From the IMG/VR virus record IMGVR_UViG_2585427971_000010: a DNA stretch of 51,466 nt. One strand, written 5' to 3'. The position numbers were made by a program, and so were the translations under genes. The stretch's first letter is position 1, and each line of letters opens with the position of its first letter. The notes below the pieces were generated by a model. That model was given only the letters and a program-made list of their open reading frames with translations, ran no database searches and was not told where the DNA came from. This DNA is from a virus. Lineage: Duplodnaviria > Heunggongvirae > Uroviricota > Caudoviricetes. This document shows positions 1-26,566 of this stretch, one piece after another.

Positions 1-132
1 TCAGCCGTTGTCACGCTCATGCAGACGTCCCCGGATATTTGCCACAAAGAGAATACGGGCCAGCCGTTCCTGCAGATCGTCCGTGTTCATCTGAGGGTAG
101 AGCTCCGCAGTTCGCCCAGCAGCTCAGTCGGG

Positions 133-1107: not shown

Positions 1108-1493
1108 ATGATTTCACAGGGCTGATACCCGTAGAGCACGGCATCACTCATCTCACCGATGATGCGGGACAGATCCAGATCGTCGAGCATGTCGCGGATG
1201 AAACGGAAGACCCGGGCAGAAGCGTGACCGCGCTCCAGTCCACGCTCCAGTGATTTGAGCGCTGCTTTACGTCTGCGGATACAGCCCCCAACCAGCGGGT
1301 CGGTGCGCAGTTCGCGGTAGATACGGATATCCCGTCCCTGAGCCTTGAGAATGGGATCAGGATTGGGCAGATACATGCCCAGTCCGTAAAAGTCGATCGC
1401 GCGGCTGCGGGAGGCAATCTGCGCGGTCAGTGATTTCTGAGGCTCAGAAAAAGCAACAAATTCATCGGGTGAAACCCAGATACCCCTCGCCAT
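1077..1493 (-). CDS. portal protein, N-terminal segment (Mu gp29-like); frameshifted relative to 133..1107
   Basis: 138-aa ORF ending …YGYQPCEIMWAVRSGRGQ*; start overlaps the terminase stop (ATGA); continuation is in the -1 frame. Confidence 0.55.
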   Translation of the reverse strand: MARGIWVSPDEFVAFSEPQKSLTAQIASRSRAIDFYGLGMYLPNPDPILKAQGRDIRIYRELRTDPLVGGCIRRRKAALKSLERGLERGHASARVFRFIRDMLDDLDLSRIIGEMSDAVLYGYQPCEIMWAVRSGRGQ

Positions 1494-3088
1494 CAGAATC
1501 CCTCCAGCATACGGGCCGCCTGACGACGACGGCGTGAGCTTGCCTTCACCGGCCCTTTGTTAATTTCACGGCTGGCGAAATACGCCAGCGCCAGTGCGAT
1601 GGCTGAATCCCCGTGGCGTTTACCACCGTCAGCCTTTGCTTTTGAGCGTTGCTCCGGTACGCGGGGGACACCGTTCACCACCTGAACGGCCCGCAGGTCA
1701 TCCAGTGTGTCTTCATCCTTTGGTAAGTCCACCAGGTTACCGTCTTCCAGTGCAGCTTTGACCGGAGGCATATGCTCCCGGTACCAGCCTTCGGTTGGCA
1801 TCACCTGCTGAACCCGGCCGGAGCCGTAGCGCTGCATGGCGTATTCAGCCAGATAGGCACCATTACCACGGGCATCAAACGCTGCACCCAGCAGACCGGG
1901 CAGGCCATCCATCAGATACCAGGTGATTTGCTCCTGCTGTCTGAACGGCACGTTACGCAGCTCCAGTACGAATGGCACGCGTCGTACCAGGTTCTTCTCC
2001 TGCAGCAGGGGATAGTCCACCGACAAATCACCGCTACGGCCAAAGTCGCGCCCCAGGAAAGAGCGGGCATCAGTGGGGAGTGCCTCCAGCAAGGGTTTCA
2101 GATACTCATCAAGCCAGTCCTGCGTCTCGCGGAAGCGAACCTCATCAGACAGCAGTTCATAACCTTCCTTGCAGGTCAGACGCAATACCGGCGTATCAGC
2201 GGACATGCGGGACTCTATCAGGGCACGGGACAGCCAGGCACCGCCACCGTTGGCCGGAATACAGTCAAGCTCTTCGGATGCGCCGGCACCGTAGAATTTG
2301 TACACCGATGCCATCCAGGCCTGCTCGGATGCCTCCGACCATTCCTTCCCGGTGCGCAGACAGACGCGCCGGAACAGCCCCTCAGATACGGCTTCCCGGA
2401 AAGTGATGCGATGTATGCTGCCTCCCTGACGTCCGGCACGGATATCCCCGATAAGCGTATTGAACGGATTGTCGTCACCGTCATGGGTGGAGATAACGCG
2501 TACCTTTCCCCCCCAGATAAGCATCGCCAGCGCCGCTTTCAGCAGTTCGTCCAGTTGCTCATGGAACGCCGCTTCGTCGATAACAATAATACCCTGACGG
2601 CCACGCAGGTTAGACGGGCGGCTGGAGAGCGCAACAATACGAAAGCCGGAGTCAGGAAATTTGATGGTGTAAGTCCTGATGTGTTTGTCGTCGTCGTCCT
2701 CTTCCCAGAATCCTTCTTCAATTTCACTGGCCGCATAGTTGAATGCCCGTGCCCACATCGCACACGCCTGAATGTATTCGACGGTCATGTCCTGGTTATA
2801 AGCGATGTAATACACATTCATCCCGCCTGCTGGCGCAGAAGAGGCGGCGGTCAGTACGTTATCGGATGCCTCAGCCCATGTAATACCGGTACGACGGCTC
2901 TTTTCTATCACCTTAAGCGGAGAGGTGTCTGCCACCCAGCGCTGCTGGTAAGGCAACAGAACGGGAGGAGCATCCAGCGCCGAGGTATCAGGCAAAACGG
3001 GAGCAAGGTTATTCCTCCCGTCCATGGGACTCATCCCTTCGGGGCCACCGCCAGCGGCGTTTAAAATCACTCCGGATGATTTTGTCAT
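1493..3088 (-). CDS. terminase large subunit (Mu gp28-like)
   Basis: 612-aa ORF; conserved region starts near LLPYQQRW; acidic ATPase and nuclease-like motifs. Start set at internal Met 82; Met at about 3025 (has GAAGGG SD) or 3034 also possible. Confidence 0.75.
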   Translation of the reverse strand: MTKSSGVILNAAGGGPEGMSPMDGRNNLAPVLPDTSALDAPPVLLPYQQRWVADTSPLKVIEKSRRTGITWAEASDNVLTAASSAPAGGMNVYYIAYNQDMTVEYIQACAMWARAFNYAASEIEEGFWEEDDDDKHIRTYTIKFPDSGFRIVALSSRPSNLRGRQGIIVIDEAAFHEQLDELLKAALAMLIWGGKVRVISTHDGDDNPFNTLIGDIRAGRQGGSIHRITFREAVSEGLFRRVCLRTGKEWSEASEQAWMASVYKFYGAGASEELDCIPANGGGAWLSRALIESRMSADTPVLRLTCKEGYELLSDEVRFRETQDWLDEYLKPLLEALPTDARSFLGRDFGRSGDLSVDYPLLQEKNLVRRVPFVLELRNVPFRQQEQITWYLMDGLPGLLGAAFDARGNGAYLAEYAMQRYGSGRVQQVMPTEGWYREHMPPVKAALEDGNLVDLPKDEDTLDDLRAVQVVNGVPRVPEQRSKAKADGGKRHGDSAIALALAYFASREINKGPVKASSRRRRQAARMLEGF

Positions 3089-3629
3089 GTGGCAATCCCC
3101 AGAATCTCGCGACGAAGCGCCTGTACTGCGTCGCTTGACAGTCCCCCTTACGGGCAATTTTCTCGGCGTTGCTGGCTGCCTGCTGCGCTCTGGCCCGTAC
3201 TTCAGACTGGAACTTTTTGAGGTTGACGGACGCGCGGGACAGCGTAGCCACATTCTTCGCCACCTTCGACAGCAGGGCCACGCGTTCTTTAGGATCGACT
3301 TCGCCTTCTTCCGCCTCCTGCAACTGGACAATACTCTCGAACAGCTCGGTCTGAATAAGGGCTATCACAGCCTCCGAACGCGCATCCTGATCGTCTGCTG
3401 CGCCTTCGGTCAGCATGCGGGCCGCTTCTGTTGCCGCACGGATAGCACCATAGCGGCGCTCAATCTTCTGTCCATAGCGATGGATAGCGGATTTGCTGAT
3501 GACGTACCCCCGCTCACGCAGCAGGGACTCCAGCTCGTTATACCCGCTGAAGCCGGATTCAGTCAGCGCCCGTTCAAGCCAGCGGCGCACATCTTCCGGC
3601 AGCTTTTCTATTGTGCTGCGTCTGGCCAT
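3009..3629 (-). CDS. Mu gp27-like protein (putative terminase small subunit / DNA-binding)
   Basis: N-terminal HTH-like segment (RSTIEKLPEDVRRWLERAL) and coiled-coil; directly upstream of terminase large subunit. C-terminal boundary uncertain. Confidence 0.55.
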   Translation of the reverse strand: MARRSTIEKLPEDVRRWLERALTESGFSGYNELESLLRERGYVISKSAIHRYGQKIERRYGAIRAATEAARMLTEGAADDQDARSEAVIALIQTELFESIVQLQEAEEGEVDPKERVALLSKVAKNVATLSRASVNLKKFQSEVRARAQQAASNAEKIARKGDCQATQYRRFVARFWGLPHDKIIRSDFKRRWRWPRRDESHGREE

Positions 3630-8801: not shown

Positions 8802-8990
8802 ATGACTTCCGAACAAGTTAAAAATCTCTTCCGTCAGCGTGGTATCACGTTTACCCGCTGGGCCGAAGAACACGGCTACAGCCGCAATGAGGTCTATCGT
8901 GTTCTCAATGGACAGACCAAAGCTCGTTACGGCAAAGCCCATGAAATTGCCGTAAAACTGGGATTAAAACCCACGTCAAATGCGGCATAA
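8802..8990 (+). CDS. small Cro/Ner-like DNA-binding regulator
   Basis: 62 aa, HTH-like (FTRWAEEHGYSRNEVYRVLNG); strong SD (AAGGAGA); positional equivalent of Mu ner. Confidence 0.6.
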   Translation: MTSEQVKNLFRQRGITFTRWAEEHGYSRNEVYRVLNGQTKARYGKAHEIAVKLGLKPTSNAA

Positions 8991-9042
8991 ATTTTCCACA
9001 TATGCAACAGGTTATCACATATTGCAAAAATGGAAATGTGAC

Positions 9043-9351
9043 ATGAGTAAAGTAAATATTTCCAGTTCTGGGACCCGCATCCTACGTGTACTCAAAGCTC
9101 TACGCGGTCATGCTCTGAACGGTGTTTCTAACGGTGAACTGGCATCAGCCCTGGGGGAGTCCCCGGCGAATATCAATCGAGCACTTAATACCCTTATTGA
9201 AGAGGGACTGGCCATGAAATTAGAGAACGGACGTTTCGCACCGGGAATCCAGTTACTACAGATCGCCATGGCTCACAGTCACGAGATGGCGCGTGCACAG
9301 GATCGTATTAACGAAATCAACCAACGAGTTATTTCAGGTAGTCGTTTGTAA
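9043..9351 (+). CDS. putative winged-helix DNA-binding protein
   Basis: Internal Met of ORF 8980..9351; HTH-like GVSNGELASALGESPANINRALNTLIEEGL. Start uncertain. Confidence 0.4.
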   Translation: MSKVNISSSGTRILRVLKALRGHALNGVSNGELASALGESPANINRALNTLIEEGLAMKLENGRFAPGIQLLQIAMAHSHEMARAQDRINEINQRVISGSRL

Positions 9352-9361
9352 GGAGTAATCA

Positions 9362-10276
9362 ATGGGACGCACCAAATCACCCGTTAACACTGAACTGAAT
9401 GTTGAGGTTCCGCTGTCAGATAACATCAATGTCAATTTGAACGCTATGACACAGCATCGCATGGAAATTATGCAGCAGTTTGGTGATGGACTGCCTTATG
9501 AACGTGATCGCATTGTTCACGAAGCACGTTTTTATATGGCGCAGAGTGCTGAATCTATGCTGGAAGCGGGTAAGCGGCTGATCATCTTAAAAGAAAATGA
9601 GCCACACGGTGATTTTACAAACATTTTAGAAAATGAACTCGGACTTGCACCACAAGTTGCTCGCCGCATGATGCAAGCCAGTATGAAGTTTTTGGGAGAA
9701 GGTGATGAGCCAACAAAACGCTCAACGTTGAGCGTTTTGGGGAAAGCCAAACTGTACGACCTGATGGTTCTGGATAATGAAGAACTTGATGAATTGGCCG
9801 ACGGCGGCACAGTTGCCGGCCTGACGCTTGACGACGTTGATCGCATGTCAGTACGTGAATTGCGTCAGGCCCTGCGCGAAGCGCGCGAAACCAACGCAGC
9901 ACAACAGCGCGTACTCGCCGACAAAAATGAAAAAATAGATTCACTCTCCACCAGACTGGAGAAGAAATCCCGTATTCAGCCGCCTGAGCCTGATGAGGAG
10001 GTTAAGAAGCTGCGGGCGGAAGTAACAGCATTAGCGGTTGAGGCGGAATCTGCTATCGCCGTCCGACTGTCCAGCGCTTTTGAGACGCTGTGCGCATATT
10101 GTGCTGAAAACATGATTGATACCCCCAGAGACTTCATGGCAGGCCTGGTCTGTCAACTGGAAAGCACAGCGCGTAGCCTGCGCTCCACATTTGACCTGCC
10201 GGACGAGCCAACAGGCAATGCAGCGCCTTCATGGCTGACTGAGCCGACGCCACAGATTAACGGGCTGGAGGCATAA
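9362..10276 (+). CDS. hypothetical protein (Mu-like early region)
   Basis: 304-aa ORF with strong SD (AAGGAG); acidic, coiled-coil-rich. Confidence 0.55.
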   Translation: MGRTKSPVNTELNVEVPLSDNINVNLNAMTQHRMEIMQQFGDGLPYERDRIVHEARFYMAQSAESMLEAGKRLIILKENEPHGDFTNILENELGLAPQVARRMMQASMKFLGEGDEPTKRSTLSVLGKAKLYDLMVLDNEELDELADGGTVAGLTLDDVDRMSVRELRQALREARETNAAQQRVLADKNEKIDSLSTRLEKKSRIQPPEPDEEVKKLRAEVTALAVEAESAIAVRLSSAFETLCAYCAENMIDTPRDFMAGLVCQLESTARSLRSTFDLPDEPTGNAAPSWLTEPTPQINGLEA

Positions 10277-10279
10277 CCA

Positions 10280-12049
10280 ATGAATGCTGCCCTGACTGAA
10301 CGACTGGTTTATGTCGCCCGCGCGGCACGTGACGCGGGGCATGGTAAACGCGGTGCAATATACGACGCTGCCTGTGCTGAACTTGGCATGTCCCGCGCCA
10401 CTCTGCTGCGCAGGCTGAAGGAGGTCTCTGTGACTGATAAACGCAAAAAACGCGCCGATGCCGGGCGCAGCGCCCTGACCCGCGACGAAGCCGCGCTGAT
10501 ATCTGCCACACTGCGTGAGGCCACCCGCAAGAACGGTAAGCGTCTCTATTCCATCGCAGATGCAGTGGAAACCCTGCGGGCTAACGGCTTTATCACCGCA
10601 GGCAGAACAGATGAAACCACCAGTGAGTTTTTCCCGTTGTCTGAAGATGCCATCAGCCGTGCTCTGCGTAACTATGGCCTGCACCCGGAACAACTGGATG
10701 CCCCTGCACCACATACCGAAGTGGCCAGTCTGCATCCCAATCATGTCTGGCAGATTGACGCCTCACTCTGCACGCTTTACTACCTGAGCAATGGACATAA
10801 AGGGCTGCAGGTGATGGACAGCGCGAAGTTCTACAAGAACAAGCCCGCTAACCTTGCCCGTATCGCCAGTGACCGCGTGTGGAGTTACGAGATTACCGAC
10901 CATGCCAGCGGCTGGATTTACGTTGAGTATGTGACGGGCGCGGAATCAGGTGAGAACCTGTGTTCTGTGCTTATCAACGCCATGCAGGAGCGTGGCGGCG
11001 CAGACGTGCTGCACGGCGTGCCGAAAATACTCTATCTCGACCCCGGCTCGGCAAACACCGCGGGTATGACGAAAAACATGTGCCGCTCACTGGGCATCGA
11101 CCTGATAGCGCACAAGCCGCATAACGCCCGCGCCACCGGACAGGTGGAAAAGGCGCGTGACATTATCGAACGCAAGCTGGAGCCGGGTCTGAAGTTCCGG
11201 CCGGTTCACAGTCTGGAAGAACTCAACGCGCTGGCCGCGAAATGGCGCAGCCACTTTAACGCCACGGCTGTTCACAGCCGCCACGGTAAAACCCGCACGG
11301 ATATCTGGCTGAAGATTACTGCTGAGCAGCTGAAAAAAGCGCCTTCCGTTGAGGTATGTCGTGAACTGGCTGTGGCGGCACCAGAACTCCGCAAAGTCAC
11401 GCCAAAACTTCGTGTCTCGTTCCGGGGCACTGAATTTGACGTATCAACGGTACCGGGCGTACTGGTTGGTGAAAAACTGATGATTACCCGTAACCCATGG
11501 CGCAGCGATGTGGCACAGGTGGTTCTGACCGGTGAGGACGGCCACGAGACGTTCTTCCTGGTCGAAGAGGTCAGAAAGAACGAGTTTGGCTTTGCTGAAG
11601 GCGCGGCGGTATTTGGCGAAAGTTACAAAGCCCTGCCGGAAACCCCGGCACAGATGGCGGCAAAAGAAACCGAAGCGCTGGTTACCGGTACAGACAACGC
11701 CGCAGATGCAGCCGCCGCACGCAAGGCGAAGGCGCTGCCGTTCGGCGGGCGGCTTGACCCGTATAAACATATCGACGACACCACACTTCCGGCCTATATG
11801 CCGAAGCGTGGTCAGGCCTCTGACGTACGCGGGCCGCGCACTGAACAACGTCCCATGACTCATGTGGAGGCCGCGAAAGCCCTGCGCGATAAGTTCAGCG
11901 CCGACGGCCTTACCTGGACGCCGGAACATTACCGCCAGTTAACGGCACAGTACCCGGACGGCGTACCGGAAGCCGCACTGGATGAAGTCATGGCCACGCT
12001 GACCACACCGGCCCGCAGCAGTGTTATCAGCATTGTTAACGGCAACTGA
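10280..12049 (+). CDS. DDE transposase (Mu A-like, integrase-core/rve fold)
   Basis: 589 aa; catalytic-core-like segments (HVWQIDASL…, …ITDHASGWIYVEY…, …LYLDPGSANTAG…); followed by AAA+ partner as in MuA/MuB. Confidence 0.8.
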   Translation: MNAALTERLVYVARAARDAGHGKRGAIYDAACAELGMSRATLLRRLKEVSVTDKRKKRADAGRSALTRDEAALISATLREATRKNGKRLYSIADAVETLRANGFITAGRTDETTSEFFPLSEDAISRALRNYGLHPEQLDAPAPHTEVASLHPNHVWQIDASLCTLYYLSNGHKGLQVMDSAKFYKNKPANLARIASDRVWSYEITDHASGWIYVEYVTGAESGENLCSVLINAMQERGGADVLHGVPKILYLDPGSANTAGMTKNMCRSLGIDLIAHKPHNARATGQVEKARDIIERKLEPGLKFRPVHSLEELNALAAKWRSHFNATAVHSRHGKTRTDIWLKITAEQLKKAPSVEVCRELAVAAPELRKVTPKLRVSFRGTEFDVSTVPGVLVGEKLMITRNPWRSDVAQVVLTGEDGHETFFLVEEVRKNEFGFAEGAAVFGESYKALPETPAQMAAKETEALVTGTDNAADAAAARKAKALPFGGRLDPYKHIDDTTLPAYMPKRGQASDVRGPRTEQRPMTHVEAAKALRDKFSADGLTWTPEHYRQLTAQYPDGVPEAALDEVMATLTTPARSSVISIVNGN

Positions 12050-12059
12050 GGAGGGAAAC

Positions 12060-13226
12060 ATGCTGGTACTGAAGCAGCAACTGAAAGAGGCCCGTATTCC
12101 ACAGGCGGTGGTGGCGAGAGCTGTCGATGTTTCTGAGGCCACGCTGGCCCAGATTGTGAATCATAACGCGTGGCCCCGCACCAGCCCCGGAGAAGTGCGC
12201 CGGCGTCTTGCGTCCTGGCTGGAAAGTCAGGGGATTGATACAACGAAGAGTTTTGATGCTGTACAGGGCGCGGCCACGCCCCGTACAGCGGGTACCACAG
12301 ATAAAACGAGCCTCAGTGAGGAAGAGAATATGTTACTCAAAAAACAGGTGTTATTTCCAGCAACCAAAAAAGCGTTTGGTCTTTTCCGTGACCCGTTCGC
12401 CGACGAAGCCATGCAGGGTTCTGATGATGTGTTCACCACCCCGGACATTCGCTACGTGCGTGAGGCGCTGTACCAGACAGCCCGTCATGGTGGGTTTATG
12501 GCCGTCATCGGTGAGTCCGGTGCGGGTAAATCCACGCTGCGCCGCGACCTGACTGAACGTATCAACCGCGAGAATGCGCCGGTAATTGTTATCGAGCCAT
12601 ACATCATCGCTATGGAAGACAACGATGTGAAAGGGAAAACCCTGAAGGCAGCAGCTATTGCCGAAGCCATTATCAGTACCATCGCACCACTGGAAAGCAT
12701 CAGACGCAGTCAGGACGCCCGTTTTCGCCAGTTGCATCGCGTCCTGAAAGACAGCAGCCAGGCGGGGTTCAGCCACGTTCTGGTGATTGAGGAGGCCCAC
12801 AGTCTGCCCATTCCGACACTGAAACACCTCAAACGCTTTTTTGAGCTGGAGTCCGGTTTCAAAAAACTGCTGTCCATCGTGCTGATTGGCCAGCCGGAAC
12901 TGGCGACAAAACTGTCTGAACGCAATATGGAAGTCCGTGAAGTCGTTCAGCGCTGTGAGGTGGTCGAACTTCTGCCTCTGGACAATAACCTTGAAGAATT
13001 TCTGACGTTCAAACTGCAACGGGCCGGTAAACAGCTGACGGACATTATGGACGCCGGTGCAGTGGATGCCATACGTGCCCGCCTGAGCAATCCGGGAAGT
13101 CACCGTAAAAATATGGTCAGCCTGCTGTATCCGCTGGCCGTCAGTAACCTGGTAATAGCCGCCATGAATCTGGCCGCTGAAATCGGGGTTCCACAGGTCA
13201 ACGCTGACGTTGTCAAAGGGGTTTAA
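12060..13226 (+). CDS. transposition ATPase (Mu B-like AAA+ protein)
   Basis: Walker A GESGAGKST, Walker B-like HVLVIEEAH; N-terminal HTH; GGAGGG SD before internal ATG at 12060. Confidence 0.75.
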   Translation: MLVLKQQLKEARIPQAVVARAVDVSEATLAQIVNHNAWPRTSPGEVRRRLASWLESQGIDTTKSFDAVQGAATPRTAGTTDKTSLSEEENMLLKKQVLFPATKKAFGLFRDPFADEAMQGSDDVFTTPDIRYVREALYQTARHGGFMAVIGESGAGKSTLRRDLTERINRENAPVIVIEPYIIAMEDNDVKGKTLKAAAIAEAIISTIAPLESIRRSQDARFRQLHRVLKDSSQAGFSHVLVIEEAHSLPIPTLKHLKRFFELESGFKKLLSIVLIGQPELATKLSERNMEVREVVQRCEVVELLPLDNNLEEFLTFKLQRAGKQLTDIMDAGAVDAIRARLSNPGSHRKNMVSLLYPLAVSNLVIAAMNLAAEIGVPQVNADVVKGV

Positions 13227-13228
13227 TA

Positions 13229-13498
13229 ATGAAATCCACCACAGGTATCAACCAGCAAATCAGCAAAGTGCAGTCAGCCATTATGGCGCTTAAGGCGACG
13301 AACACGGATGTACAGAGCATCACCATCAGGGGTAACAAACCTGTCATCCGCGTTTCCCGGAGTGCGCATTGCATGCGCATGCTTGAGCAGGGAAAGGCCT
13401 GTTATCTGTATACCGGACATGACCACAGGGGATATTTCCGTCAGGGCGTTTTCGAACTGCACGGCTGTCGCGTCGTGTGGCCGGAATCTTTGTGGTAA
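13229..13498 (+). CDS. hypothetical small protein (Mu-like semi-essential region)
   Basis: 89-aa ORF immediately after B with SD. Confidence 0.45.
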   Translation: MKSTTGINQQISKVQSAIMALKATNTDVQSITIRGNKPVIRVSRSAHCMRMLEQGKACYLYTGHDHRGYFRQGVFELHGCRVVWPESLW

Positions 13499-13525
13499 TC
13501 AGCACAACTGGAGAAATCATAAAAA

Positions 13526-14056
13526 ATGGCAAAAAGTACAAAAGGTGCAAAACGTATCAAGGCCGCAGCAGCACTCTGGGTGCCGGGGACACGTGAAGAG
13601 GTCATTGAGGGAATCAGACTACTCGGTGACGCACAACGTGAACTGGTCAGGGCTGAAACAGAAATGAATGACGCCATTGGCGATATCACCGCACGTTATG
13701 CCCCGCTCACCGAGAGCCTGAAAAAACGCATGGCCGAACTGCAGTCCGGTATTCAGACATGGTGTGAGGCACACCGTGATGAACTGACCGGCAACGGGAA
13801 GGTGAAGTTCGCTAACCTCACCACCGGCGAGGTGCAGTGACGAAACCGTCCGCCATCAGTCAGTATCCGTGGGGCGGATAATGTTATTGAATTACTGAGA
13901 CGTCTGGGGCTTGAGCGCTTTATTCGTGTAAAAGAGGAAATAAATAAAGACGCTATCCTGAATGAAAAAGAGGCCGTGAAAAATATTCCCGGTATTTCCA
14001 TTAAAAGCGACATTGAGGATTTTTCAATAATTCCTTTTGAGCAGGATGTGCAGTAA
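13526..14056 (+). pseudogene. gam: Gam-like host-nuclease inhibitor (Mu Gam homologue) interrupted by in-frame TGA at 13838-13840
   Basis: N-terminal 104 aa recalls Mu Gam (MAKSTKGAKRIKAAAALWVPGTREEV…); the same frame continues after the stop (RNRPPSVSIRGADNVIELLRRLGLERFIRVKEEINKDAIL…SIKSDIEDFSIIPFEQ) matching the Gam C-terminus; the stop sits where Mu has Trp. Confidence 0.6.
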
Positions 14057-14153
14057 ACACACCACGTTAATTATTTAATAAAAACATTTTCTTTTTTATT
14101 CCGACGTCAGCGCCGCGGGCTTCTGCACGCCGGAAACAGAGGAGAATTAAATC

Positions 14154-14348
14154 ATGATATTTAAATGTATTCAGTGCGAGAGGGATATAACAGCCCTGCG
14201 TTTTCACAGCGCCATCGCCGTGATGTCCGGTAAATACCACATCCCTGCGGTACGCGTCACCCTGGTCTGCCCGTACTGCAGCCAGCATTTTTCGGCAGAC
14301 GTGCCCGTCATGGAATTCTCCCGCCCTGACAGGGAGGACTCGCAATGA
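14154..14348 (+). CDS. small zinc-ribbon-like protein
   Basis: 64 aa with CxxC…CxxC (CIQCER … CPYCSQ); SD GAGGAG. Confidence 0.45.
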   Translation: MIFKCIQCERDITALRFHSAIAVMSGKYHIPAVRVTLVCPYCSQHFSADVPVMEFSRPDREDSQ

Positions 14349-14617
14349 TTACCCCACAGGAAGCACGACAGCGCACCCGAACCCTTGTTGAACACTATGT
14401 CAACGAGTGTGAATGCCGCGACCTCACCGATGTGAAGCACGTCCTGACGGCGCTAATCAGCATGACCGCTCAAGCCATTGTGGCGACCAACGGAAAGGCG
14501 GCTGCCCTGCAGGTACTGGTGAACACACTAACCCACACGGCAGCGCATGAGGTGCCGTACCGGATGGAAACCACTGCAGAAGGCGGCCTGCACATCACCG
14601 TCAGCCGGAAGCACTGA
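14345..14617 (+). CDS. hypothetical protein
   Basis: 90-aa ORF, SD GGGAGG, start overlaps upstream stop. Confidence 0.45.
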   Translation: MITPQEARQRTRTLVEHYVNECECRDLTDVKHVLTALISMTAQAIVATNGKAAALQVLVNTLTHTAAHEVPYRMETTAEGGLHITVSRKH

Positions 14618-14626
14618 GGGCGCGGC

Positions 14627-14923
14627 ATGACACGGAACACCATACTCACCCGCACCGCCCTCTACCGTCTGGCCCTGCAGCGTTTCGGGCCGGACGCACA
14701 GGCCCTGAAACTGACAGAAGAGGCCGCTGAACTGGCGGCCAGTGCTGCCCGCAATCTGAACGGACAGGGCAGCGAAAGCGACCTCGCGGCAGAGCTGGCA
14801 GACGTGGAAATCATGACAGAGCAATTGCGCCTTCAGGGGATGGACCGGCTGATTGACTTCCACAAACAGAAAAAACTGGAACGTCTGGCTGCACGACTGG
14901 GCGTGATTTACACGAACGAGTAA
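14627..14923 (+). CDS. MazG-like nucleotide pyrophosphohydrolase domain protein
   Basis: 98 aa with EExxE and E..D motifs (LTEEAAELAASAAR; ELADVEIM) typical of all-alpha NTP pyrophosphohydrolases. Confidence 0.5.
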   Translation: MTRNTILTRTALYRLALQRFGPDAQALKLTEEAAELAASAARNLNGQGSESDLAAELADVEIMTEQLRLQGMDRLIDFHKQKKLERLAARLGVIYTNE

Positions 14924-14937
14924 CCGGGAGGCATTCA

Positions 14938-15153
14938 ATGGCTGACATACTCAGGGAAATCACCGCATGGATACTGATTCTTACTGGCCTGGCGACATGC
15001 CTCAGTGCGGGGGCAGCCCTGGCTGCCCTGCTGATGCACATAACAACACAGTGGTTATGGGAAAAGCTTAAAGCAGCATACAGCCTGAAAGAGCTGTCCG
15101 ACGCTGTCCGGGCATGGAAACGGCAGAAAAATACAGGAGATACAGAACAATGA
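14938..15153 (+). CDS. small membrane protein
   Basis: 71 aa, hydrophobic helix (ITAWILILTGLATCLSAGAALAALLM). Confidence 0.4.
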   Translation: MADILREITAWILILTGLATCLSAGAALAALLMHITTQWLWEKLKAAYSLKELSDAVRAWKRQKNTGDTEQ

Positions 15154-15833
15154 CAGACCAGAATAAACACATTGAGAAACTGAAAAAGTTGCTGGCGCTG
15201 GCCGCATCCGGCAACCCGCACGAGGCCGCTCTGGCACTGCGCCGAGCCCGTAAACTGATGGATGTTCACGGCATCACACATTCCGACATTGCTATGAGTG
15301 ATATTGATGAAACCATCAGTCACTACTGGCCGACAGGCAGTCTCCGTCCACCGCGCTACATGCTGGGCCTGATGAACATCATCCGCGAGGTATTTGGTGT
15401 TAACTCCATCATTCACCCCGGCACGCATCCGTCTGTGGGGTTCTACGGCAACCGGGAACGTGCGGCACTGGCTGCATACACCTGGGAAGTGCTGGCCCGT
15501 CAGCTGAAAAAGGCGCGTCAGCAGTATATCAGTGCACAGAACAAAAGAATAAAAACCGCCACCCGCACCAGCCGTGGAGACCAGTTTGCCGAAGGCTGGG
15601 TGCTGGCCGTTATCAGTGAAATACAGTCCTTTGCCCTGACCGATGATGAGCGTGAACTGATGCAGCAGTGGCTGGAACATAAATACCCGCAGACGCAAAC
15701 CACCAGGGCGCGTAAACCGGGAAGAAGCCGCAATGGCGACGCCTCGCGCTATGCGGGGTTTCGTGAAGGGCAGAACGTCAGACTGCACCGCCCGGTCAGT
15801 GGGCAGGAACAACAGAAACTGGAGGCCAGATGA
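15150..15833 (+). CDS. hypothetical protein conserved in Mu-like early regions
   Basis: Internal Met with GGAG SD (MTDQNKHIEKLKKLLALAASGNPHEAALALRRARKLM…). Confidence 0.5.
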   Translation: MTDQNKHIEKLKKLLALAASGNPHEAALALRRARKLMDVHGITHSDIAMSDIDETISHYWPTGSLRPPRYMLGLMNIIREVFGVNSIIHPGTHPSVGFYGNRERAALAAYTWEVLARQLKKARQQYISAQNKRIKTATRTSRGDQFAEGWVLAVISEIQSFALTDDERELMQQWLEHKYPQTQTTRARKPGRSRNGDASRYAGFREGQNVRLHRPVSGQEQQKLEAR

Positions 15834-16060
15834 TTACGCTATCAGGTAAAAGCCGGAAATTAAAAGCCTGCCGAATATCTGCCAGATACCTTTTTGCCCG
15901 CGCCTTTTTTAAGAACGTCAGGCCGGGGATCACAATTGGTGTTATTGCCGGACGCGAACAGGTTGAAAAATACATGTCAGGTGCATGGTGGAATAACGAC
16001 CCTGTCATTGCTGCCCGTAATATTCATATCGAATGGGGAGGTATTCAGAATGACTACTGA
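15830..16060 (+). CDS. hypothetical protein
   Basis: 76-aa ORF with GGAGG SD, start overlaps upstream stop. Confidence 0.4.
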   Translation: MITLSGKSRKLKACRISARYLFARAFFKNVRPGITIGVIAGREQVEKYMSGAWWNNDPVIAARNIHIEWGGIQNDY

Positions 16061-16256
16061 AACCATTGTCTGTTTTCTTTTCTGGTATATGTACGCAGGA
16101 TCATGCAGCGCAAGACTTCATCGTTCCCTGGGCTATGGCAGGCACTACGACACCGCGCATTACATCCTGTACATGACCGCCGTCATGTTGTTCTGGCCAG
16201 TCACCCTGCCAGCTGCAACCGACATTGTTGCCGACAGACTGAAAAAAAGGAGATGA
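16050..16256 (+). CDS. small hydrophobic protein
   Basis: 68 aa from internal Met (MTTETIVCFLFWYMY…), SD GGGGAGG. Confidence 0.35.
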   Translation: MTTETIVCFLFWYMYAGSCSARLHRSLGYGRHYDTAHYILYMTAVMLFWPVTLPAATDIVADRLKKRR

Positions 16257-16257
16257 T

Positions 16258-16707
16258 ATGCAGAAAAAACGCCTGATACAGCTTATCCATATTGCCCGTA
16301 ATGAACTGGGTATGGATGAAGACACCTACCGCCAGATGTTACAGGGGCTGACCGGTAAAGCCTCAACCAAAGGAATGGATACCACACAACTAAACTGCGT
16401 GCTGGAATCCATGAAAAAGAAAGGCTTTCGCGTTAAACCAGCCAGAAAAGCCAGCTCCGGTTTACCGCTGGATAACCATCCGCAGTCCAGGAAAATTCGT
16501 GCGCTATGGCTTGAAATGGCTGCTGCCGGCATTGTTCGTGACCGTTCAGAAAATGCATTAGCGAGGTGGATCAAGCGGGAAACGGGCATCAGCGCCCTGC
16601 GCTGGCTCAGTACTGAACAGGCAAGCAGTGTTATTGAGAAACTGAAGAAGTGGCAGCGCAGAGCTGCGGGAGTCAAACATGAGCGACCTGAATCAGTTTC
16701 GAAGTAA
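16258..16707 (+). CDS. gemA: GemA-like regulatory protein (Mu gp16 family)
   Basis: N-terminal LIQLIHIARNELGMDEDTYRQML… pattern typical of GemA; sits immediately upstream of the Mor-family gene. Confidence 0.6.
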   Translation: MQKKRLIQLIHIARNELGMDEDTYRQMLQGLTGKASTKGMDTTQLNCVLESMKKKGFRVKPARKASSGLPLDNHPQSRKIRALWLEMAAAGIVRDRSENALARWIKRETGISALRWLSTEQASSVIEKLKKWQRRAAGVKHERPESVSK

Positions 16708-17068
16708 GGGGCCGGAACTCCTGGTGGAACTGGCACAGCATACCTCTGAGACCGTTCGCGAGATTATTGATATTGAGCCCGAAGTTGCCGACCAGATTGG
16801 TCAGGCCGTCGCGAACCGAATGATGCAGGTCTGGGGCGGGCAAAACGTTTATTTCCCGATGGGCATGGTATGGAAGGTCAGTCAGCGCGACCGGGAAATC
16901 TTCAGGGAGTTTAACGGACGCAACCACCACGAACTGGCCCGCAAATTTGGTGTTTCGCTTCAGTGGGTCTACAGCGTGGTTAAGCGGGTAAGAAAAGAAG
17001 AACTGGATCGGATGCAGGGCAAGCTATTTGCTGATGAACCCGATGCAGATACGGAGAAAAAAGAGTAA
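16679..17068 (+). CDS. mor: Mor/C-family transcriptional activator
   Basis: 129 aa with conserved Mor-family segments (…WGGQNVYFPMG…, …FREFNGRNHHELARKFGVSLQWVYSVVKRVR…). Confidence 0.7.
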   Translation: MSDLNQFRSKGPELLVELAQHTSETVREIIDIEPEVADQIGQAVANRMMQVWGGQNVYFPMGMVWKVSQRDREIFREFNGRNHHELARKFGVSLQWVYSVVKRVRKEELDRMQGKLFADEPDADTEKKE

Positions 17069-17097
17069 TATCTGCAATCAGGCTGGCGCGAGTTCTG

Positions 17098-17154
<57 letters not shown>

Positions 17155-17155
17155 A

Positions 17156-17232
<77 letters not shown>

Positions 17233-21227: not shown

Positions 21228-22016
21228 ATGACAGTCCAAATATCTGCGGAATCCCTTTCTCCGCTACATCATAACCAACTTCCCGTCATCACTACTGAAT
21301 TGCTTGCCAGTTTGTATGGCACGGAAGTAAATGGTATCCAGCAAAACTTCAAGCGCAACATCGCCAGATTTGTCGTAGGAAAGCATTTTTTTAAGCTGGA
21401 AGGTAATGAATTACGCGACTTCAAAAACAGACTGACAGATAGTCAGTCAGTTGCTAAACATACCCGATCCCTCATTCTCTGGACAGAACGCGGCGCAGCT
21501 CGCCATGCCAAAATGCTGGAAACAGAACAGGCCTGGGAAGTTTTCGAAAAGCTGGAAGATTGTTATTTTAGCCAGCGTCCAGAGAGGCGGAGTACAACTA
21601 CCGATGACCGTACTCCCTTGCGTGATGCCGTTAATATACTGGTCGGCAAGAAAGGCATGATGTATCCCGATGCCTACACCATGATTCATCAACGCTTCGC
21701 CGTCTCTCACATAGAACAACTGTCACAGACGCAAATGTTAGAGGCGATTGAATACATCCACTGCCTGCTACTCGATGAAAATCACCCAACCATTCCAGAT
21801 TTTTCTTTTATCACCACTATCAAAAATGGAAAAGTGACCGGGATGCGCCATGTTGCCAAAGGCGAACATCTGATGACCTTTGACGCTTTCAAAGAGATCG
21901 CTGAGCGGGCAGGGTATCTGGTGATCCACAGCGACAATCTGCGAAGTATGACACTGGATAAATTGATGGTAATGGGGAAAAAGTCGGCTATATCCGTTGC
22001 TAATTCAGCATTTTGA
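21228..22016 (+). CDS. antirepressor-like protein (ORF6N-type N-terminal domain)
   Basis: N-terminal region ELLASLYGTEVNGIQQNFKRNIARFVVGKHFFKL resembles antirepressor N-domains; start set at Met 17 (GAGG SD); 21180 or 21198 also possible. Confidence 0.5.
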   Translation: MTVQISAESLSPLHHNQLPVITTELLASLYGTEVNGIQQNFKRNIARFVVGKHFFKLEGNELRDFKNRLTDSQSVAKHTRSLILWTERGAARHAKMLETEQAWEVFEKLEDCYFSQRPERRSTTTDDRTPLRDAVNILVGKKGMMYPDAYTMIHQRFAVSHIEQLSQTQMLEAIEYIHCLLLDENHPTIPDFSFITTIKNGKVTGMRHVAKGEHLMTFDAFKEIAERAGYLVIHSDNLRSMTLDKLMVMGKKSAISVANSAF

Positions 22017-22046
22017 CAGGTTGTTTGGGGCGGAAATACTCTATTT

Positions 22047-22112
22047 GCGCTTAAAAAGGTATTTGACCACGACCAGCACGAGACCGAATACCTCTGTCAA
22101 AGTACCGCCCAT
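22047..22112. repeat. 66-bp direct repeat, copy A (orphan copy of the 3' end of gene 25463..26068)
   Basis: About 93% identical to 25468..25533; on the minus strand encodes MGGTLTEVFGLVLVVVKYLF*. Confidence 0.7.
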
Positions 22113-22142
22113 ATAAAACAGTTACATATGCACTTGATGACT

Positions 22143-22176
22143 AAGCTGGCACCAGGTTAACACCTGGCGCCAGCTT
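22143..22176. terminator. strong hairpin (about 15-bp arms, 4-nt loop) between convergent genes; probable terminator
   Basis: AAGCTGGCACCAGGT-TAAC-ACCTGGCGCCAGCTT, just downstream of the lipoprotein gene stop; no clean U-tract. Confidence 0.45.
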
Positions 22177-22190
22177 GAAGGAGACTTCAG

Positions 22191-23114
22191 TTATTGGTTT
22201 CTGAGGAAAGCGATTCTTGAAAGGGTCATTTGCGTCTGGCAGTCGACCATTTTCTTGACTTCAGCATCTGTTCCCTGCATTGAAACTTTACCGCACATAG
22301 CATCCTTAGTTTTGATCCACTGACGCTGAGAAGGCAGCAAATCTTTTTTCTTCGCCGGGGTTAACTTGCTCCAGACGGTACTCAAATCAGAGTCGGCATT
22401 CGCAAATGCCATTCGGGACTGATCAAGGTTGTCAGCTTTTTGCGGCTGAAGTTGTGCCTGTCTCTCTATTTGCTTCTCCGCCTCATACTTAGCCTGTTCT
22501 TGCGCCCTGAGTTGCACCTGTTGTTCCGCTTCAATTTGACTCTGTTGGGCATCCTTAGCCTGCTGGATTTTCTGCTGCTCAACGATCGGGGTGATAATGG
22601 AAAGCGATGTCAGTAAAGCGGCGCCCACTGATATCGGATTATCAGTAGAGGTTTTTACAAAAACGTTTTTCTGATCGTCGGTCGCCTGCACGGTGTAGGT
22701 GATACGTTTTGAAAAGGCGTTTGCGTTGTTCTCCAAAAACAGGCTTTCCATTTGCTTATCGAGATTACGATTAAAATTCTTTCTGTAAGCATCTGAAAGC
22801 TGGACGTACTCGTTCGCAGATAGAGTCATCGTCACGGTCCCTTCACAAGTTTTCATTGTGCTGCCCGTGTCACTTGATGTTGTGGAGATCTCAGAGATGG
22901 CTAGTTTGATCTTGTCCAGTGTGCTTCGTTTGGTCTGATTAGTGACATCAGGGTATTTATCGACCTGTTCAGAGAGTCCTTCATAAGCAGATTTTTTTAA
23001 TAAATCCATGAGAGCTGACTGGGTTATTTCCGAAGAACAACCGATCTCATCTTTTTTGTTATCACAGCCTGTAAGGGCAATGGCGAGTAAGAGTACTGAG
23101 TATTTTAATCTCAT
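22191..23114 (-). CDS. lipoprotein with C-terminal LprI-like (DUF1311-type) domain
   Basis: Signal peptide with lipobox LTGC; Q-rich coiled-coil; C-terminal Cys-containing region (…QRQWIKTKDAMCG…VDCQTQMTLSRIAFL). Confidence 0.6.
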   Translation of the reverse strand: MRLKYSVLLLAIALTGCDNKKDEIGCSSEITQSALMDLLKKSAYEGLSEQVDKYPDVTNQTKRSTLDKIKLAISEISTTSSDTGSTMKTCEGTVTMTLSANEYVQLSDAYRKNFNRNLDKQMESLFLENNANAFSKRITYTVQATDDQKNVFVKTSTDNPISVGAALLTSLSIITPIVEQQKIQQAKDAQQSQIEAEQQVQLRAQEQAKYEAEKQIERQAQLQPQKADNLDQSRMAFANADSDLSTVWSKLTPAKKKDLLPSQRQWIKTKDAMCGKVSMQGTDAEVKKMVDCQTQMTLSRIAFLRNQ

Positions 23115-24301
23115 GAATTCCCTTTAGAGTAAGGATTGGTTTTTAAGACGCGGTCTGTAATCAGTCCCGAGAGCTACAGTAAACAACGCTGAGCACTGAA
23201 CGCATCACAGGTAAGGTAAAAGGTGATATCGGCAAAGGCTGTGAAACCTTTAATTCAACAGATGGGAACGGTATGCGCAGGATCCTGTAACGACGCTCCC
23301 AAAACCGGAAACCTGTAAGGCATGTTTTCGCTGCTGAACTTAATATACGAACCTGCACTATCATGAACATATTTTATATCGTTATACCCCGAGTGATTGT
23401 GCCCGGCAATGGATAGTGTCCTGGAGGAACTATTTCTACTGTAAAAGGTAGATATTTAATTTCAGTTTTGAATTATTCCCTGCTGTTAATAACAATGGCT
23501 GTATATGGCACCGAGTAGGCATTTTTTCGCTTACTGAAGGGCAGCTGTGAGCGAGGAACAGACTTTCCCTACTTCGTTGAGAGTACACCTAGTACAATCA
23601 AGGCTAAATGATAAAAATATACAAAATATCATATTTATGATATATATAATGGCATTAATCTTATTCTTGGATTACGTTGAAAGGGTAATATTATATTTGT
23701 GTAACATAGTTTAGATAACAATGCCGTTATGGGGGGGGAAAGACATTTCAACATATTAGCTTTGTATCTAACGCTCATGTAGATCTCGATTTTGAACTTA
23801 AAGAACAATTATTTTTTAGAGAGCAAGGTATTTTTGGGGAACAAAAACATAAAGTAATGGAGAGAGGAGAATGTATCAAAAAATCATCGATTTAATTTAG
23901 ATTGTCCGTATAGTTGGGGGTAAGTCGAATCGCTGGGCTACATGGAATATTGTGTCAAGTAAAAATATATTTCAATCTTGCAATAACCGATTGTTGAAAA
24001 TAATGTCAAATCTTAATGGTGAATGGGGAGAATATAATAAACATGAGTCGATATTATGCAAATGGATTTAAATATTTTATACCCGAAGACATAGGGTTTC
24101 GAGAGTTCGATGAGACTACTTTGAATGCTTTCGAATTTGCTGGCTAAAACATATAGGTTATATCTTACATCTGTTTGTAATGGAGCGTAGATGCGACAAG
24201 CTACACCATAATAATCATATTATGATATATTGTTAAGTTGTTATGGCATTAAATAAAATTATGTCATTTTGTTAACCAAGCAAGAATCAAAGGACTTTTA
24301 G

Positions 24302-25000
24302 ATGGGTACGGCATTAATTTCAAGCTTTATTAGTGGTGCAATAGCTATAATCTCTATTGCTATATCTACTTATAATCAGAATAGAATAAACAAGCTCAAT
24401 GAATCACTGGATGTAAGGAGAAAACATCAGTACTATATTGAACCGTTAATTCGCTCAGCTTCAGACTTACAAAGCCGTATTTATAATATATTAGAATTGG
24501 GGTTCATTGAAGAGTTTTATCATAATGGGAATAAGCGCCAACAAGATTATGTTATCAACAATACTGTTTTTCTTTTTTCCCAGTTTTTTGCATGGACAGA
24601 AGCTGCCCGCATAGACATTCAATACCTTAGCCTAGAAAAAAATAAAAAAATGAGGGAGTTTATTAGATTACAGAACAATATTAACTCATTAATCCAAACA
24701 GACGTCTTTGGTCAGTATTTTATGTTTTTCATAGGAGAGCAGAGAGCTATTGCAGAAAAGATGCTGATATCAACAGATACTGGATTTGATTGCATAGGTT
24801 ACGGCAGTTTCACAAAGGAAAATTGCTTTATCAATGAGCCATTTTTTTTAGATTTAAACAATGAAGTGATAAATATGACAAGAGATATCGGAATTTATAA
24901 AGAAAGGCTAATCAGAATACAGCACGCGTTAATCGATTTAATTAATTTTCTTGATCCTGGCATGATTCGATTTGACGGAAAAAAATATGGAAAAATATAA
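24302..25000 (+). CDS. low-GC membrane-anchored protein of unknown function (single N-terminal TM helix)
   Basis: 232 aa; N-terminal helix ALISSFISGAIAIISIAISTY; strongly AT-rich codon usage inside an AT-rich island. Confidence 0.55.
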   Translation: MGTALISSFISGAIAIISIAISTYNQNRINKLNESLDVRRKHQYYIEPLIRSASDLQSRIYNILELGFIEEFYHNGNKRQQDYVINNTVFLFSQFFAWTEAARIDIQYLSLEKNKKMREFIRLQNNINSLIQTDVFGQYFMFFIGEQRAIAEKMLISTDTGFDCIGYGSFTKENCFINEPFFLDLNNEVINMTRDIGIYKERLIRIQHALIDLINFLDPGMIRFDGKKYGKI

Positions 25001-25184
25001 CCCAGATGATTCGTATCAAGGTAAGTTGCTATATGTATCAATTTAATTATGGTTGGGTGAAATTTATGTTAATAGTAGCGGAGGGTTAGTTAAAATATGC
25101 TCTCAGTGATTTTTGGATAGTTCTTTTATTTATCATTGAAAGTAAATATGTATAGCTTCAAGATTTACAAGTGAATCTGTTTAT

Positions 25185-25218
25185 TGACAGTCCGCTTATG
25201 GCACAGAGCGGACTGTCA
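25185..25218. other. perfect 12-bp inverted repeat hairpin
   Basis: TGACAGTCCGCT-(10 nt)-AGCGGACTGTCA, followed by T-rich sequence; downstream of gene 24302..25000. Confidence 0.4.
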
Positions 25219-25462
25219 TATTAAATTTGGCTCCACGCCATAGATGTGTCAGCTCATATCTTATCTAATACACACAATAACTTTCTCATTCTTGGAGAAT
25301 TATTTTTTTAAGGGTAGGTGTTGACGTTAGAGCAAAAGAATGGTGATTTTTTTGATGTGTATTACGTTGGAACTGATGGGAATAACTATCTGTTTTCAAC
25401 GCACTGCTAATTTATCAAGGCCCTTTGATCAGGGCCTTCGAAAGACTGTTGGACCGAGAGAG

Positions 25463-26068
25463 TTACTTGCGTTTAAAAAGGTATTTTGTCACGACCAGCA
25501 CGAGGCCGAATACCTCTGTCAAAGTACCGCCCATGTACAACTGTAGTGTTAAATCCTCAAATTCCAGCTTACCTGCGCCGTCGGCAATAAATACACCATT
25601 CATTATCAGAAGTTGGAAAGCAAGGATAATCAGGAACCATTTCCCGTATCGTTTTTTTAGAGCGATTTCTGCTTCAAAATCTTTGTTGTTGAGTTGTTTG
25701 CGCTCATGCTCGGTATCAAGTGAATTCACCTGTTTCACAGATGTGAACTCGGTCAAGATTTTACTCTCAGTACGGGTGACTTGTTGAGAGGGTGTAGCAG
25801 TTGGAATTCTTTTGCTAGACGCAGCTACAGCCATTTTGCGAGCTTCGGCAGCTCTTTTTCTGGCTATTCCGCGAATACGGACAGCCGTTTTTTTGGGGGC
25901 GTGCGAAACCTTTGGCTGAGGTGAAGCTTCGTCAGGAGACTGAACCGGAGTTTCATCGTCCTCCGGCTCAACCTCTTCTGCTAACTGACGGTGTAGGTTG
26001 AGGGAATCCTTCAGTCTGCGTGCTACTTCCTGTTTGAAACGGCTGTTAAAATCGTCATCCGATGGCAT
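25463..26068 (-). CDS. membrane-anchored protein: charged disordered N-terminal region plus two C-terminal TM helices
   Basis: 201 aa; K/R/E/P-rich N-terminal two-thirds; C-terminal WFLIILAFQLLIMNGVFIA and LTEVFGLVLVVTKYLF; 9-nt gap after the peptidase gene. Confidence 0.55.
   Translation of the reverse strand: MPSDDDFNSRFKQEVARRLKDSLNLHRQLAEEVEPEDDETPVQSPDEASPQPKVSHAPKKTAVRIRGIARKRAAEARKMAVAASSKRIPTATPSQQVTRTESKILTEFTSVKQVNSLDTEHERKQLNNKDFEAEIALKKRYGKWFLIILAFQLLIMNGVFIADGAGKLEFEDLTLQLYMGGTLTEVFGLVLVVTKYLFKRK
25468..25533. repeat. 66-bp direct repeat, copy B (encodes C-terminal TM helix of gene 25463..26068)
   Basis: Matches 22047..22112 with 4-5 mismatches. Confidence 0.7.
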
Positions 26069-26077
26069 TTTAAAGCG

Positions 26078-26566
26078 TTACCCCAACCTCAAGTTCTTTA
26101 AACGATAAGTCATCGCATCGTCAGATACGCCAAAATAATGCGCCATTATATAACTTGGTTGACCGTCAGCGTGCAGTTTTCTGACCTCATCTACCGGCAT
26201 CAGAAGTTCTGCTGCGAACTTGTTTGCAAAAATTTCATCAGGATGCGTTCCGGCGCTTGCGGTTTCGCCACGTAAATCAACGTACTCATATTCATCGCTA
26301 TGCGATGCTTGCCGGGCGATGTAATGCCCCAACTCATGCCCACATGAAAAACGTTGACGAACTTTGTTGTCATCACTGTTTAGAAAGATCGCTGGATCTT
26401 GATCTTTTTGTTTAATCAGTGCGCCAGAAACTTTCCCAGGAAGATCGGTAATAAAAACATCTAATCCCATGTCGTGAGCAATTTTCGCTGGATCAACAGG
26501 GAAACCACGCCCGCACCAGAACGTGTCCAGCACTCGCCGGGCGTGCTCTCTTGGGTTGGTAGCCAT
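26078..26566 (-). CDS. ImmA/IrrE-family zinc metallopeptidase
   Basis: HEXXH motif (HELGHY) in an ImmA/IrrE-like context; 162 aa, no HTH domain of its own. Confidence 0.7.
   Translation of the reverse strand: MATNPREHARRVLDTFWCGRGFPVDPAKIAHDMGLDVFITDLPGKVSGALIKQKDQDPAIFLNSDDNKVRQRFSCGHELGHYIARQASHSDEYEYVDLRGETASAGTHPDEIFANKFAAELLMPVDEVRKLHADGQPSYIMAHYFGVSDDAMTYRLKNLRLG

Follow-up and report, generated by a model that had tools for sequence, protein, structure and literature searches.

The 51,466-nt stretch of DNA analysed here (the window) starts in the 3' end of a portal gene, within the late-gene region of a BcepMu-like transposable prophage of an ST131-type Escherichia coli, and the early operon of this prophage contains a gam gene whose reading frame is interrupted by an in-frame stop. 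The operon begins with genes of a Ner-like HTH protein and a DUF3102 protein, followed by those of the DDE transposase A (10280-12049) and the B/ExeA ATPase (12021-13226). Downstream of B there are a gene for an 89-aa protein, gam, small genes of the semi-essential (SE) region, the GemA gene (16258-16707) and the Mor gene (16679-17068). The DDE transposase, the AAA+ B protein, Mor and GemA, a terminus ending in CA (only the right end lies in the window) and varied insertion sites are all features of Bcepmuvirus-like phages. The features referred to below are as follows; types A, B and C are phage types, and L004 and L007 are two loci nearly identical to the window.

1-1493, minus strand: portal gene (DUF935), with deletions at 107, 136, 152 and 1102
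About 3084-3629, minus strand: DUF3486/Mup27-like gene, with a deletion at 3142
8980-17068, plus strand: early operon holding gam (open reading frame map; gene calls and Pfam matches on L004 and L007; annotation of relatives)
13315, plus strand: linked marker SNP, G in the type-C TGA haplotype, the window and L007, A in the wild-type type-A and type-B phages examined
13510-13514, plus strand: Shine-Dalgarno-like GGAGA, 11 nt 5' of the gam ATG (reading of the sequence)
13526-14056, plus strand: gam (Mu Gam/host-nuclease inhibitor family), a 177-codon frame cut at codon 105 (translation, PF07352, annotation of relatives)
13526-13837, plus strand: 104 sense codons, the truncated product (open reading frame list, PHROG 491 match, AlphaFold2 model of the intact relative P0001)
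13838-13840, plus strand: opal TGA in place of the TGG of the invariant Trp105, G to A at 13840, next base C
13841-14056, plus strand: 71 in-frame codons and TAA, the C-terminal part of Gam from the RxRPPS motif onward (PHROG 491 positions 99-173)
15135, plus strand: private SNP A marking the TGA-bearing type-A sub-lineage (window, L004 and L007)
17217-17230, plus strand: right terminus of the transposable prophage, CTCAAGTCTAATCA (the common end in all related loci, with divergence after it)

The remainder of the window (17231-51466) is a resident prophage of ST131 strains (JJ1886, EC958), from which it differs by two substitutions and no indels. This lambdoid prophage has a lambda-like head and a P2-like tail, and the Mu-like element is inserted 62 nt inside its replication gene (homologue of WP_001023813.1), so that one prophage disrupts another at 17231. 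The resulting junction at 17230/17231 was found in none of 5,426 complete E. coli genomes.

Direct reading of the gam frame gives an ATG at 13526, a TGA at 13838-13840 (codon 105) and a TAA at 14054-14056. If tryptophan is assumed at the stop, the 176-aa product matches PF07352 (Phage_Mu_Gam) with an E value of 9.9e-41 and 139.6 bits, spanning profile positions 1-148 of 149, and the N-terminal 104 aa alone score 69.7 bits (the cut-off being 28.3 bits). PHROG 491 ('Mu Gam-like end protection') is matched at positions 2-97 by the 104 aa before the stop (E 1.3e-36) and at positions 99-173 by the 71 aa after it (E 5.8e-28), indicating that the halves are consecutive parts of one protein in one frame, from which only the position of the stop is absent. 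An interrupted Gam homologue at 13526-14056, with both halves aligning with Mu Gam in the same frame, was the original prediction, made from the sequence alone; the translation and the profile matches confirm its coordinates, frame and alignment, with no base miscounted. The Mu string given there for comparison, ANLVTGDVSWRVRPPSVSIRG, occurs verbatim in 14 retrieved Gam proteins of 173-174 aa.

Mu Gam, a host-nuclease inhibitor and Ku orthologue, is the characterised protein of this family. About 63% identity over 96% of the length connects the gene with the Mu-type Gam proteins of 173-174 aa, the same family profiles are matched, and the gene likewise follows those for transposase A and B within the early operon of a transposable phage. 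Unlike Mu Gam, the window frame is cut at the invariant Trp105, and normal termination yields only 59% of the protein. Since an uninterrupted frame of about 170-176 codons is expected of the family, the TGA at codon 105 makes this gene a pseudogene or a nonsense allele. In its copy of the W-R-x-R-P-P-S motif the W is replaced by the stop, and RNRPPS is still encoded 3' of it. Separate translation of the C-terminal part was considered and rejected: the first in-frame ATG, GTG or TTG beyond the stop, a GTG, does not come until about codon 151 and leaves about 25 residues.

The closest relatives of the gam region, the chromosome of E. coli 4/1-1 and Escherichia phage PhiKM (Bcepmuvirus), differ from the window over 1001 bp at positions 13315 and 13840 only, and both have G at 13840, that is, TGG. 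Accordingly, the intact genes encoding WP_001140136.1 (E. coli ST131 strains) and XRL29421.1 (PhiKM) differ from the window by a single base within the gene, TGG versus TGA, the other difference (13315) lying upstream of gam. Alignment of Gam orthologues places tryptophan at the codon-105 position in 118 of 118 homologues (56-100% identity) and in all 41 members of a diverse subset, as the first residue of an invariant W-R-x-R-P-P-S block. The proposed single change of TGG to TGA at a conserved tryptophan is thus well founded, both in the orthologues and in related strains, where this codon is TGG in 4/1-1 and PhiKM and TGA in a small minority of E. coli genomes.

The distribution of this allele was followed in public sequence collections. 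The exact 104-aa product is encoded by 620 contigs (NCBI, JGI, ENA and Logan assemblies), and the exact full-length Gam protein by at least 1000. This gam is present in 619 of 5,426 complete E. coli genomes, and five of these contain the exact 81-mer with TGA; in IMG/VR, exact 32-mers identified 32 contigs with TGG and none with TGA. The type-A immunity region was found in 98 complete genomes, none of them among the five with TGA, and the three type-A complete genomes examined have TGG together with C at 15135. In relatives, the 531-nt gam interval is annotated either as WP_001140136.1 or as a pseudogene with an 'internal stop', and the latter Gam-family annotation is given by RefSeq to all five TGA-containing complete genomes. 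Two examples are MUK77_RS16980 (EC5654) and I6J88_RS21735 (FDAARGOS_1258), both 'host-nuclease inhibitor Gam family protein, internal stop', which have the same TGA in the same codon. Unlike the window, they have the type-C haplotype, whose final 30 codons show six more differences (five in third positions, one Ser/Thr), and another immunity region, and they are mostly located at nagE. The TGA allele of gam is genuine, rare and inherited, and it is already catalogued, as the NCBI pipeline labels it a pseudogene; neither the gene nor this kind of event is new. The presence of the substitution on 620 contigs and the 'internal stop' in RefSeq also agree with the earlier view that the stop was unlikely to be a homopolymer sequencing error.

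Other lesions of gam also occur. IS1 lies within or beside the gene in the complete genomes NZ_CP076697.1 (about 1035229-1037006) and NZ_CP196276.1 (about 1416742-1418518), in the latter of which PGAP lists two Gam fragments; these IS1 events are disruptions of gam independent of the TGA.

The TGA copies examined form six junctions with host DNA, all at the same phage terminus. The sites are the lambdoid prophage of the window, nagE (six loci), irp2/ybtA, ycaL-cmk, a position upstream of pdxI/hrpA, and the interval between the genes of an M20 hydrolase and a citrate symporter (M20-citT). Their carriers belong to three mosaic phage backgrounds with different immunity regions, and 21 of the 24 TGA contigs read represent one prophage, clonally inherited at nagE. 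The type-A carriers (the window, L004 and L007) differ from each other by 0-1 bases over 8.8 kb and share A at 15135, a base found in none of the 534 complete genomes matched by an 81-mer around this position. The host flank of L007 and the prophage adjoining the Mu-like element in the window are both identical to ST131 genomes, and the host of L004 would also be ST131-like, judging by its resident Mu-like prophage at ycaL-cmk, a site also used in the ST131-like strain 4/1-1. Most simply, a single type-A ancestor bearing the TGA would subsequently have reached at least three sites in ST131-like hosts. The shared terminus, the six sites, the three backgrounds and the occurrence of 15135A at three sites together show that TGA carriers kept transposing or lysogenising. 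As to its location, the C to A change at 15135 falls in the last codons of a 71-aa open reading frame (14938-15153), 15 nt upstream of the start of a DUF2786 gene.

Type C was found at nagE and at one other site, and its gam haplotype is associated with TGA in all five complete genomes that have this haplotype, the next-best matches being eight mismatches off. A type-B phage with TGA (L005) occupies ycaL-cmk, a site normally taken in ST131 strains by a TGG prophage (L013). L005 and L004 coexist as a double lysogen in GCA_964055425.1, in which both Mu-like prophages have the TGA; they share SNPs in a patchy manner, with alleles swapped at 10426 and 13315. This looks like gene conversion within the double lysogen, the alternative being cross-polishing of the two copies during assembly. 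The linked SNPs, as distinct from a full phylogeny, suggest that the TGA probably arose once, on the type-C gam haplotype, and the linked sites are consistent with recombination of a tract, from after about 11.6 kb to before 13969, from type C into type A. The codons after the stop contain no secondary lesions in any of 11 TGA copies, as would be expected if the allele is young or if the C-terminal codons are still in use. A selection test on these codons was uninformative: the six differences between haplotypes represent older divergence joined by recombination, and there is no variation within haplotypes.

The consequences of the stop for the protein were assessed on an AlphaFold2 model of the intact relative P0001, which is 98% identical (41 aligned homologues, mean pLDDT 85). 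The model consists of a long helix (23-88), strands at 95-98, 101-107 and 111-114, further helices and two final strands (157-170). W105 is located in the second beta-strand, so the truncated product would retain the long N-terminal helix and the first one and a half beta-strands, and 23 of the 41 invariant residues are found from position 105 onward. What normal termination yields would thus be essentially the long helix alone, and such a 104-aa fragment would probably be devoid of both end-binding and RecBCD-blocking activity. A 'putative Gam' structure, PDB 2p2u, is a sequence relative of the gam product (E 7.9e-8); a Foldseek comparison of the AlphaFold2 monomer model with the PDB gave no significant match, not even to 2p2u, and the relation to this entry is one of sequence only.

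In phage Mu, gam belongs to the semi-essential part of the early transcript, and a Mu derivative lacking this part is still able to lysogenise (PMC3325207). The ends of the injected Mu genome are held and protected by the N protein (PMC3325207, PMC3820752). If these properties can be extrapolated from Mu to a BcepMu-like phage, the dispensability of the SE region and the protection of the ends by N would explain why the loss of gam is tolerated.

The following course of events may be proposed. One G to A transition converted the invariant Trp codon to TGA (W105*), and translation stops after 104 residues, the long helix being kept and the rest of the beta/alpha domain, including W-R-x-R-P-P-S, being lost. 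The fragment would presumably no longer cap double-strand ends against RecBCD. This loss would be tolerated, Gam being accessory and the injected genome being guarded by an N protein as in Mu. The allele, probably of a single origin on the type-C gam haplotype, has persisted as a minority variant; recombination of prophages residing in one host would have carried it into further mosaic backgrounds, and ordinary transposition or lysogenisation would have taken it to fresh chromosomal sites. On a small share of ribosomes Trp-tRNA should decode the UGA and yield authentic Gam, and the allele might therefore be a severe hypomorph and not an absolute null. Overall, W105* is probably a heritable loss-of-function or strongly hypomorphic minority allele of the accessory gene gam, one that is tolerated and that transposition and recombination have spread.

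A nonsense allele in so familiar an accessory phage gene is of little consequence in itself. The mobility of its carriers suggests a natural experiment, in which a BcepMu-like phage of E. coli can keep lysogenising and transposing without intact Gam, and it would extend the 'semi-essential' status of gam, established for Mu, to BcepMu-like phages.

Readthrough of the stop might be more than incidental, if Trp-tRNA at the UGA-C supplied useful amounts of wild-type Gam; the gene would then be down-tuned but working, and hence persist. The A1 protein of phage Q-beta is made by tryptophan readthrough of UGA, and UGA-C is said to have been ranked by Poole, Brown and Tate in 1995 as the weakest termination tetranucleotide of E. 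coli. The same decoding event is possible at gam codon 105 as at the Q-beta A1 stop and in the extension of E. coli NudL; those stops, however, are normal gene ends giving extensions, whereas the gam stop is a recent intragenic mutation and is not conserved, as follows from the tryptophan in all homologues and the rarity of TGA in complete genomes and IMG/VR contigs. At UGA codons of E. coli, Trp-tRNA competes with RF2, and readthrough in K-12 is about 2% at 37 C and about 4% at 25 C (PMC10570021). Mechanistically, some readthrough by Trp-tRNA at the gam UGA is to be expected, and the tryptophan inserted, being the exact ancestral residue, would restore exact wild-type Gam. The percent-level values, however, come from K-12, whose RF2 terminates poorly, while with the RF2-B variant typical of other strains the readthrough products of two tested genes were undetectable (PMC5373646); because the host is ST131-like and not K-12, readthrough at gam is probably small.

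The surroundings of the stop provide no stimulatory structure for readthrough: the fold at 13826-13905 is unremarkable (z = -1.0), an Rfam search of 13200-14400 with E up to 1 gave no match, SECIS-like families included, and ARAGORN found no tRNA gene, and hence no suppressor, in the window. The intact post-stop codons of all 11 copies might be taken to favour a useful readthrough product, but, with only 0-1 differences between whole phages in 8.8 kb, they are uninformative. Gam also acts as a stoichiometric end-binding dimer, for which about 1% of the usual supply may not suffice. Persistence of gam as a down-tuned but useful gene is, on this evidence, unlikely.

The prevailing explanation, an inherited loss-of-function or strongly hypomorphic allele, has also to be compared with decay of the prophage, of which the stop would be a symptom; this had been the first suggestion for the window. 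In its favour, the prophage sits inside another prophage, and the portal (DUF935) and DUF3486/Mup27-like genes carry between them five 1-nt deletions relative to every relative examined (positions 107, 136, 152 and 1102 in the former, 3142 in the latter), by which these two late genes are frameshifted. The deletions shorten short single-base runs (CC to C, CCCC to CCC, TT to T, CCCC to CCC and C6 to C5), the 3.7 kb concerned contain a single substitution besides, and no indel versus JJ1886 occurs in the remaining 34 kb of the window. Such a pattern is better explained by assembly error, in a region probably repeated in the genome, than by evolution, although the deletions may possibly represent real inactivation. 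The exact 138-aa frameshifted portal fragment has no independent copy on record. No other gene is interrupted in the early operon (8980-17068). The TGA itself is older than the window copy and travels with mobile phages, so that the suggested decay was not borne out and is distinctly unlikely to account for the stop: carriers have moved to six sites in three backgrounds, with 15135A at three of the sites. W105* is an ordinary variant, one that would abolish function, and gives no sign of prophage decay. For genome scanning this means that a prophage gene with an in-frame stop does not by itself show the element to be dead.

Loss of Gam might also be adaptive. By binding ends and blocking RecBCD, Gam could expose the phage to a defence such as Gabija, and the stop would then be a selected escape. 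In the Pseudomonas Mu-like phage JBD30 a GamMu homologue licenses targeting by Gabija and a gam point mutation contributes to escape, and in F8-like Pseudomonas phages a naturally circulating Gam substitution confers resistance to Gabija (PMC12407980, a 2025 preprint). JBD30 gp13 and the Gam variants of F8 resemble the present case in being natural or selected changes of GamMu homologues in viable phages, JBD30 being transposable as well (PMC12407980). They differ in being missense changes in Pseudomonas phages with a demonstrated phenotype, whereas the window gam is a nonsense allele of an E. coli prophage, known from its sequence. The movement of the TGA between phage backgrounds and sites, and the IS1 copies in or beside gam in two other complete genomes, would also agree with selection for loss. 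Against it, the Gabija evidence is from Pseudomonas and from a preprint, the TGA is rare, with five carriers among 619 complete genomes and none among 98 type-A genomes or 32 IMG/VR contigs, which fits general purifying selection on gam, and 21 of the 24 contigs read are one clonally inherited nagE prophage. The low frequency and the dominance of this clone argue for a tolerated minority variant over a selected loss, and escape from a defence is very unlikely as the cause of the stop.

A selected state in which Gam is off but leaky is most improbable. In such a state, the loss of bulk Gam would evade Gabija-like defences that sense Gam-capped or RecBCD-free ends, condition-dependent readthrough of the UGA-C (at low temperature or with more Trp-tRNA) would give traces of the protein, and the spread over three backgrounds would reflect selection and not hitch-hiking. 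As GamMu proteins can license Gabija, circulating gam-null alleles in prophages of clinical ST131 strains would be suitable material to probe the cost of anti-RecBCD functions with respect to defence in E. coli.

Finally, a sequencing or assembly error, or a programmed recoding (selenocysteine or conserved readthrough), is scarcely credible: UGA is the selenocysteine codon and there are probable homopolymer errors elsewhere in the window, but error is rejected by the identical substitution on 620 independent contigs and in five finished genomes, and a selenocysteine or other recoding signal is ruled out by the Rfam result and the ordinary downstream fold, with no tRNA gene in the window and with TGG in 118 of 118 homologues leaving nothing conserved as a recoding site.

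Several other features of the window may be mentioned. The segment 6121-8751, between the lysis genes and the repressor, is wholly different among phage types A, B and C. In type A it contains genes for proteins of 158, 196 and 328 aa with no assigned function (PHROGs 12025 and 10002), and in types B and C their place is taken by a DNA adenine methylase. PADLOC gave only weak HTH-type matches for the variable genes beside the repressor, none of them convincing. Downstream of mor, at 17097-17105, there is a run of T that is T8 in the type-A TGA copies (window, L004 and L007) and T9 in the type-B/PhiKM and type-C copies compared.

In the lambdoid prophage, no inverted repeat was found at 21500-26200, the repeat detected there by BLAST being direct. 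This 78-bp direct repeat (22045-22122 and 25467-25544) is identical at 70 of 78 positions, and its copies are 3.4 kb apart. The segment between them encodes an LprI-family protein along with other small genes, and the repeats may mark the boundary of a cassette.
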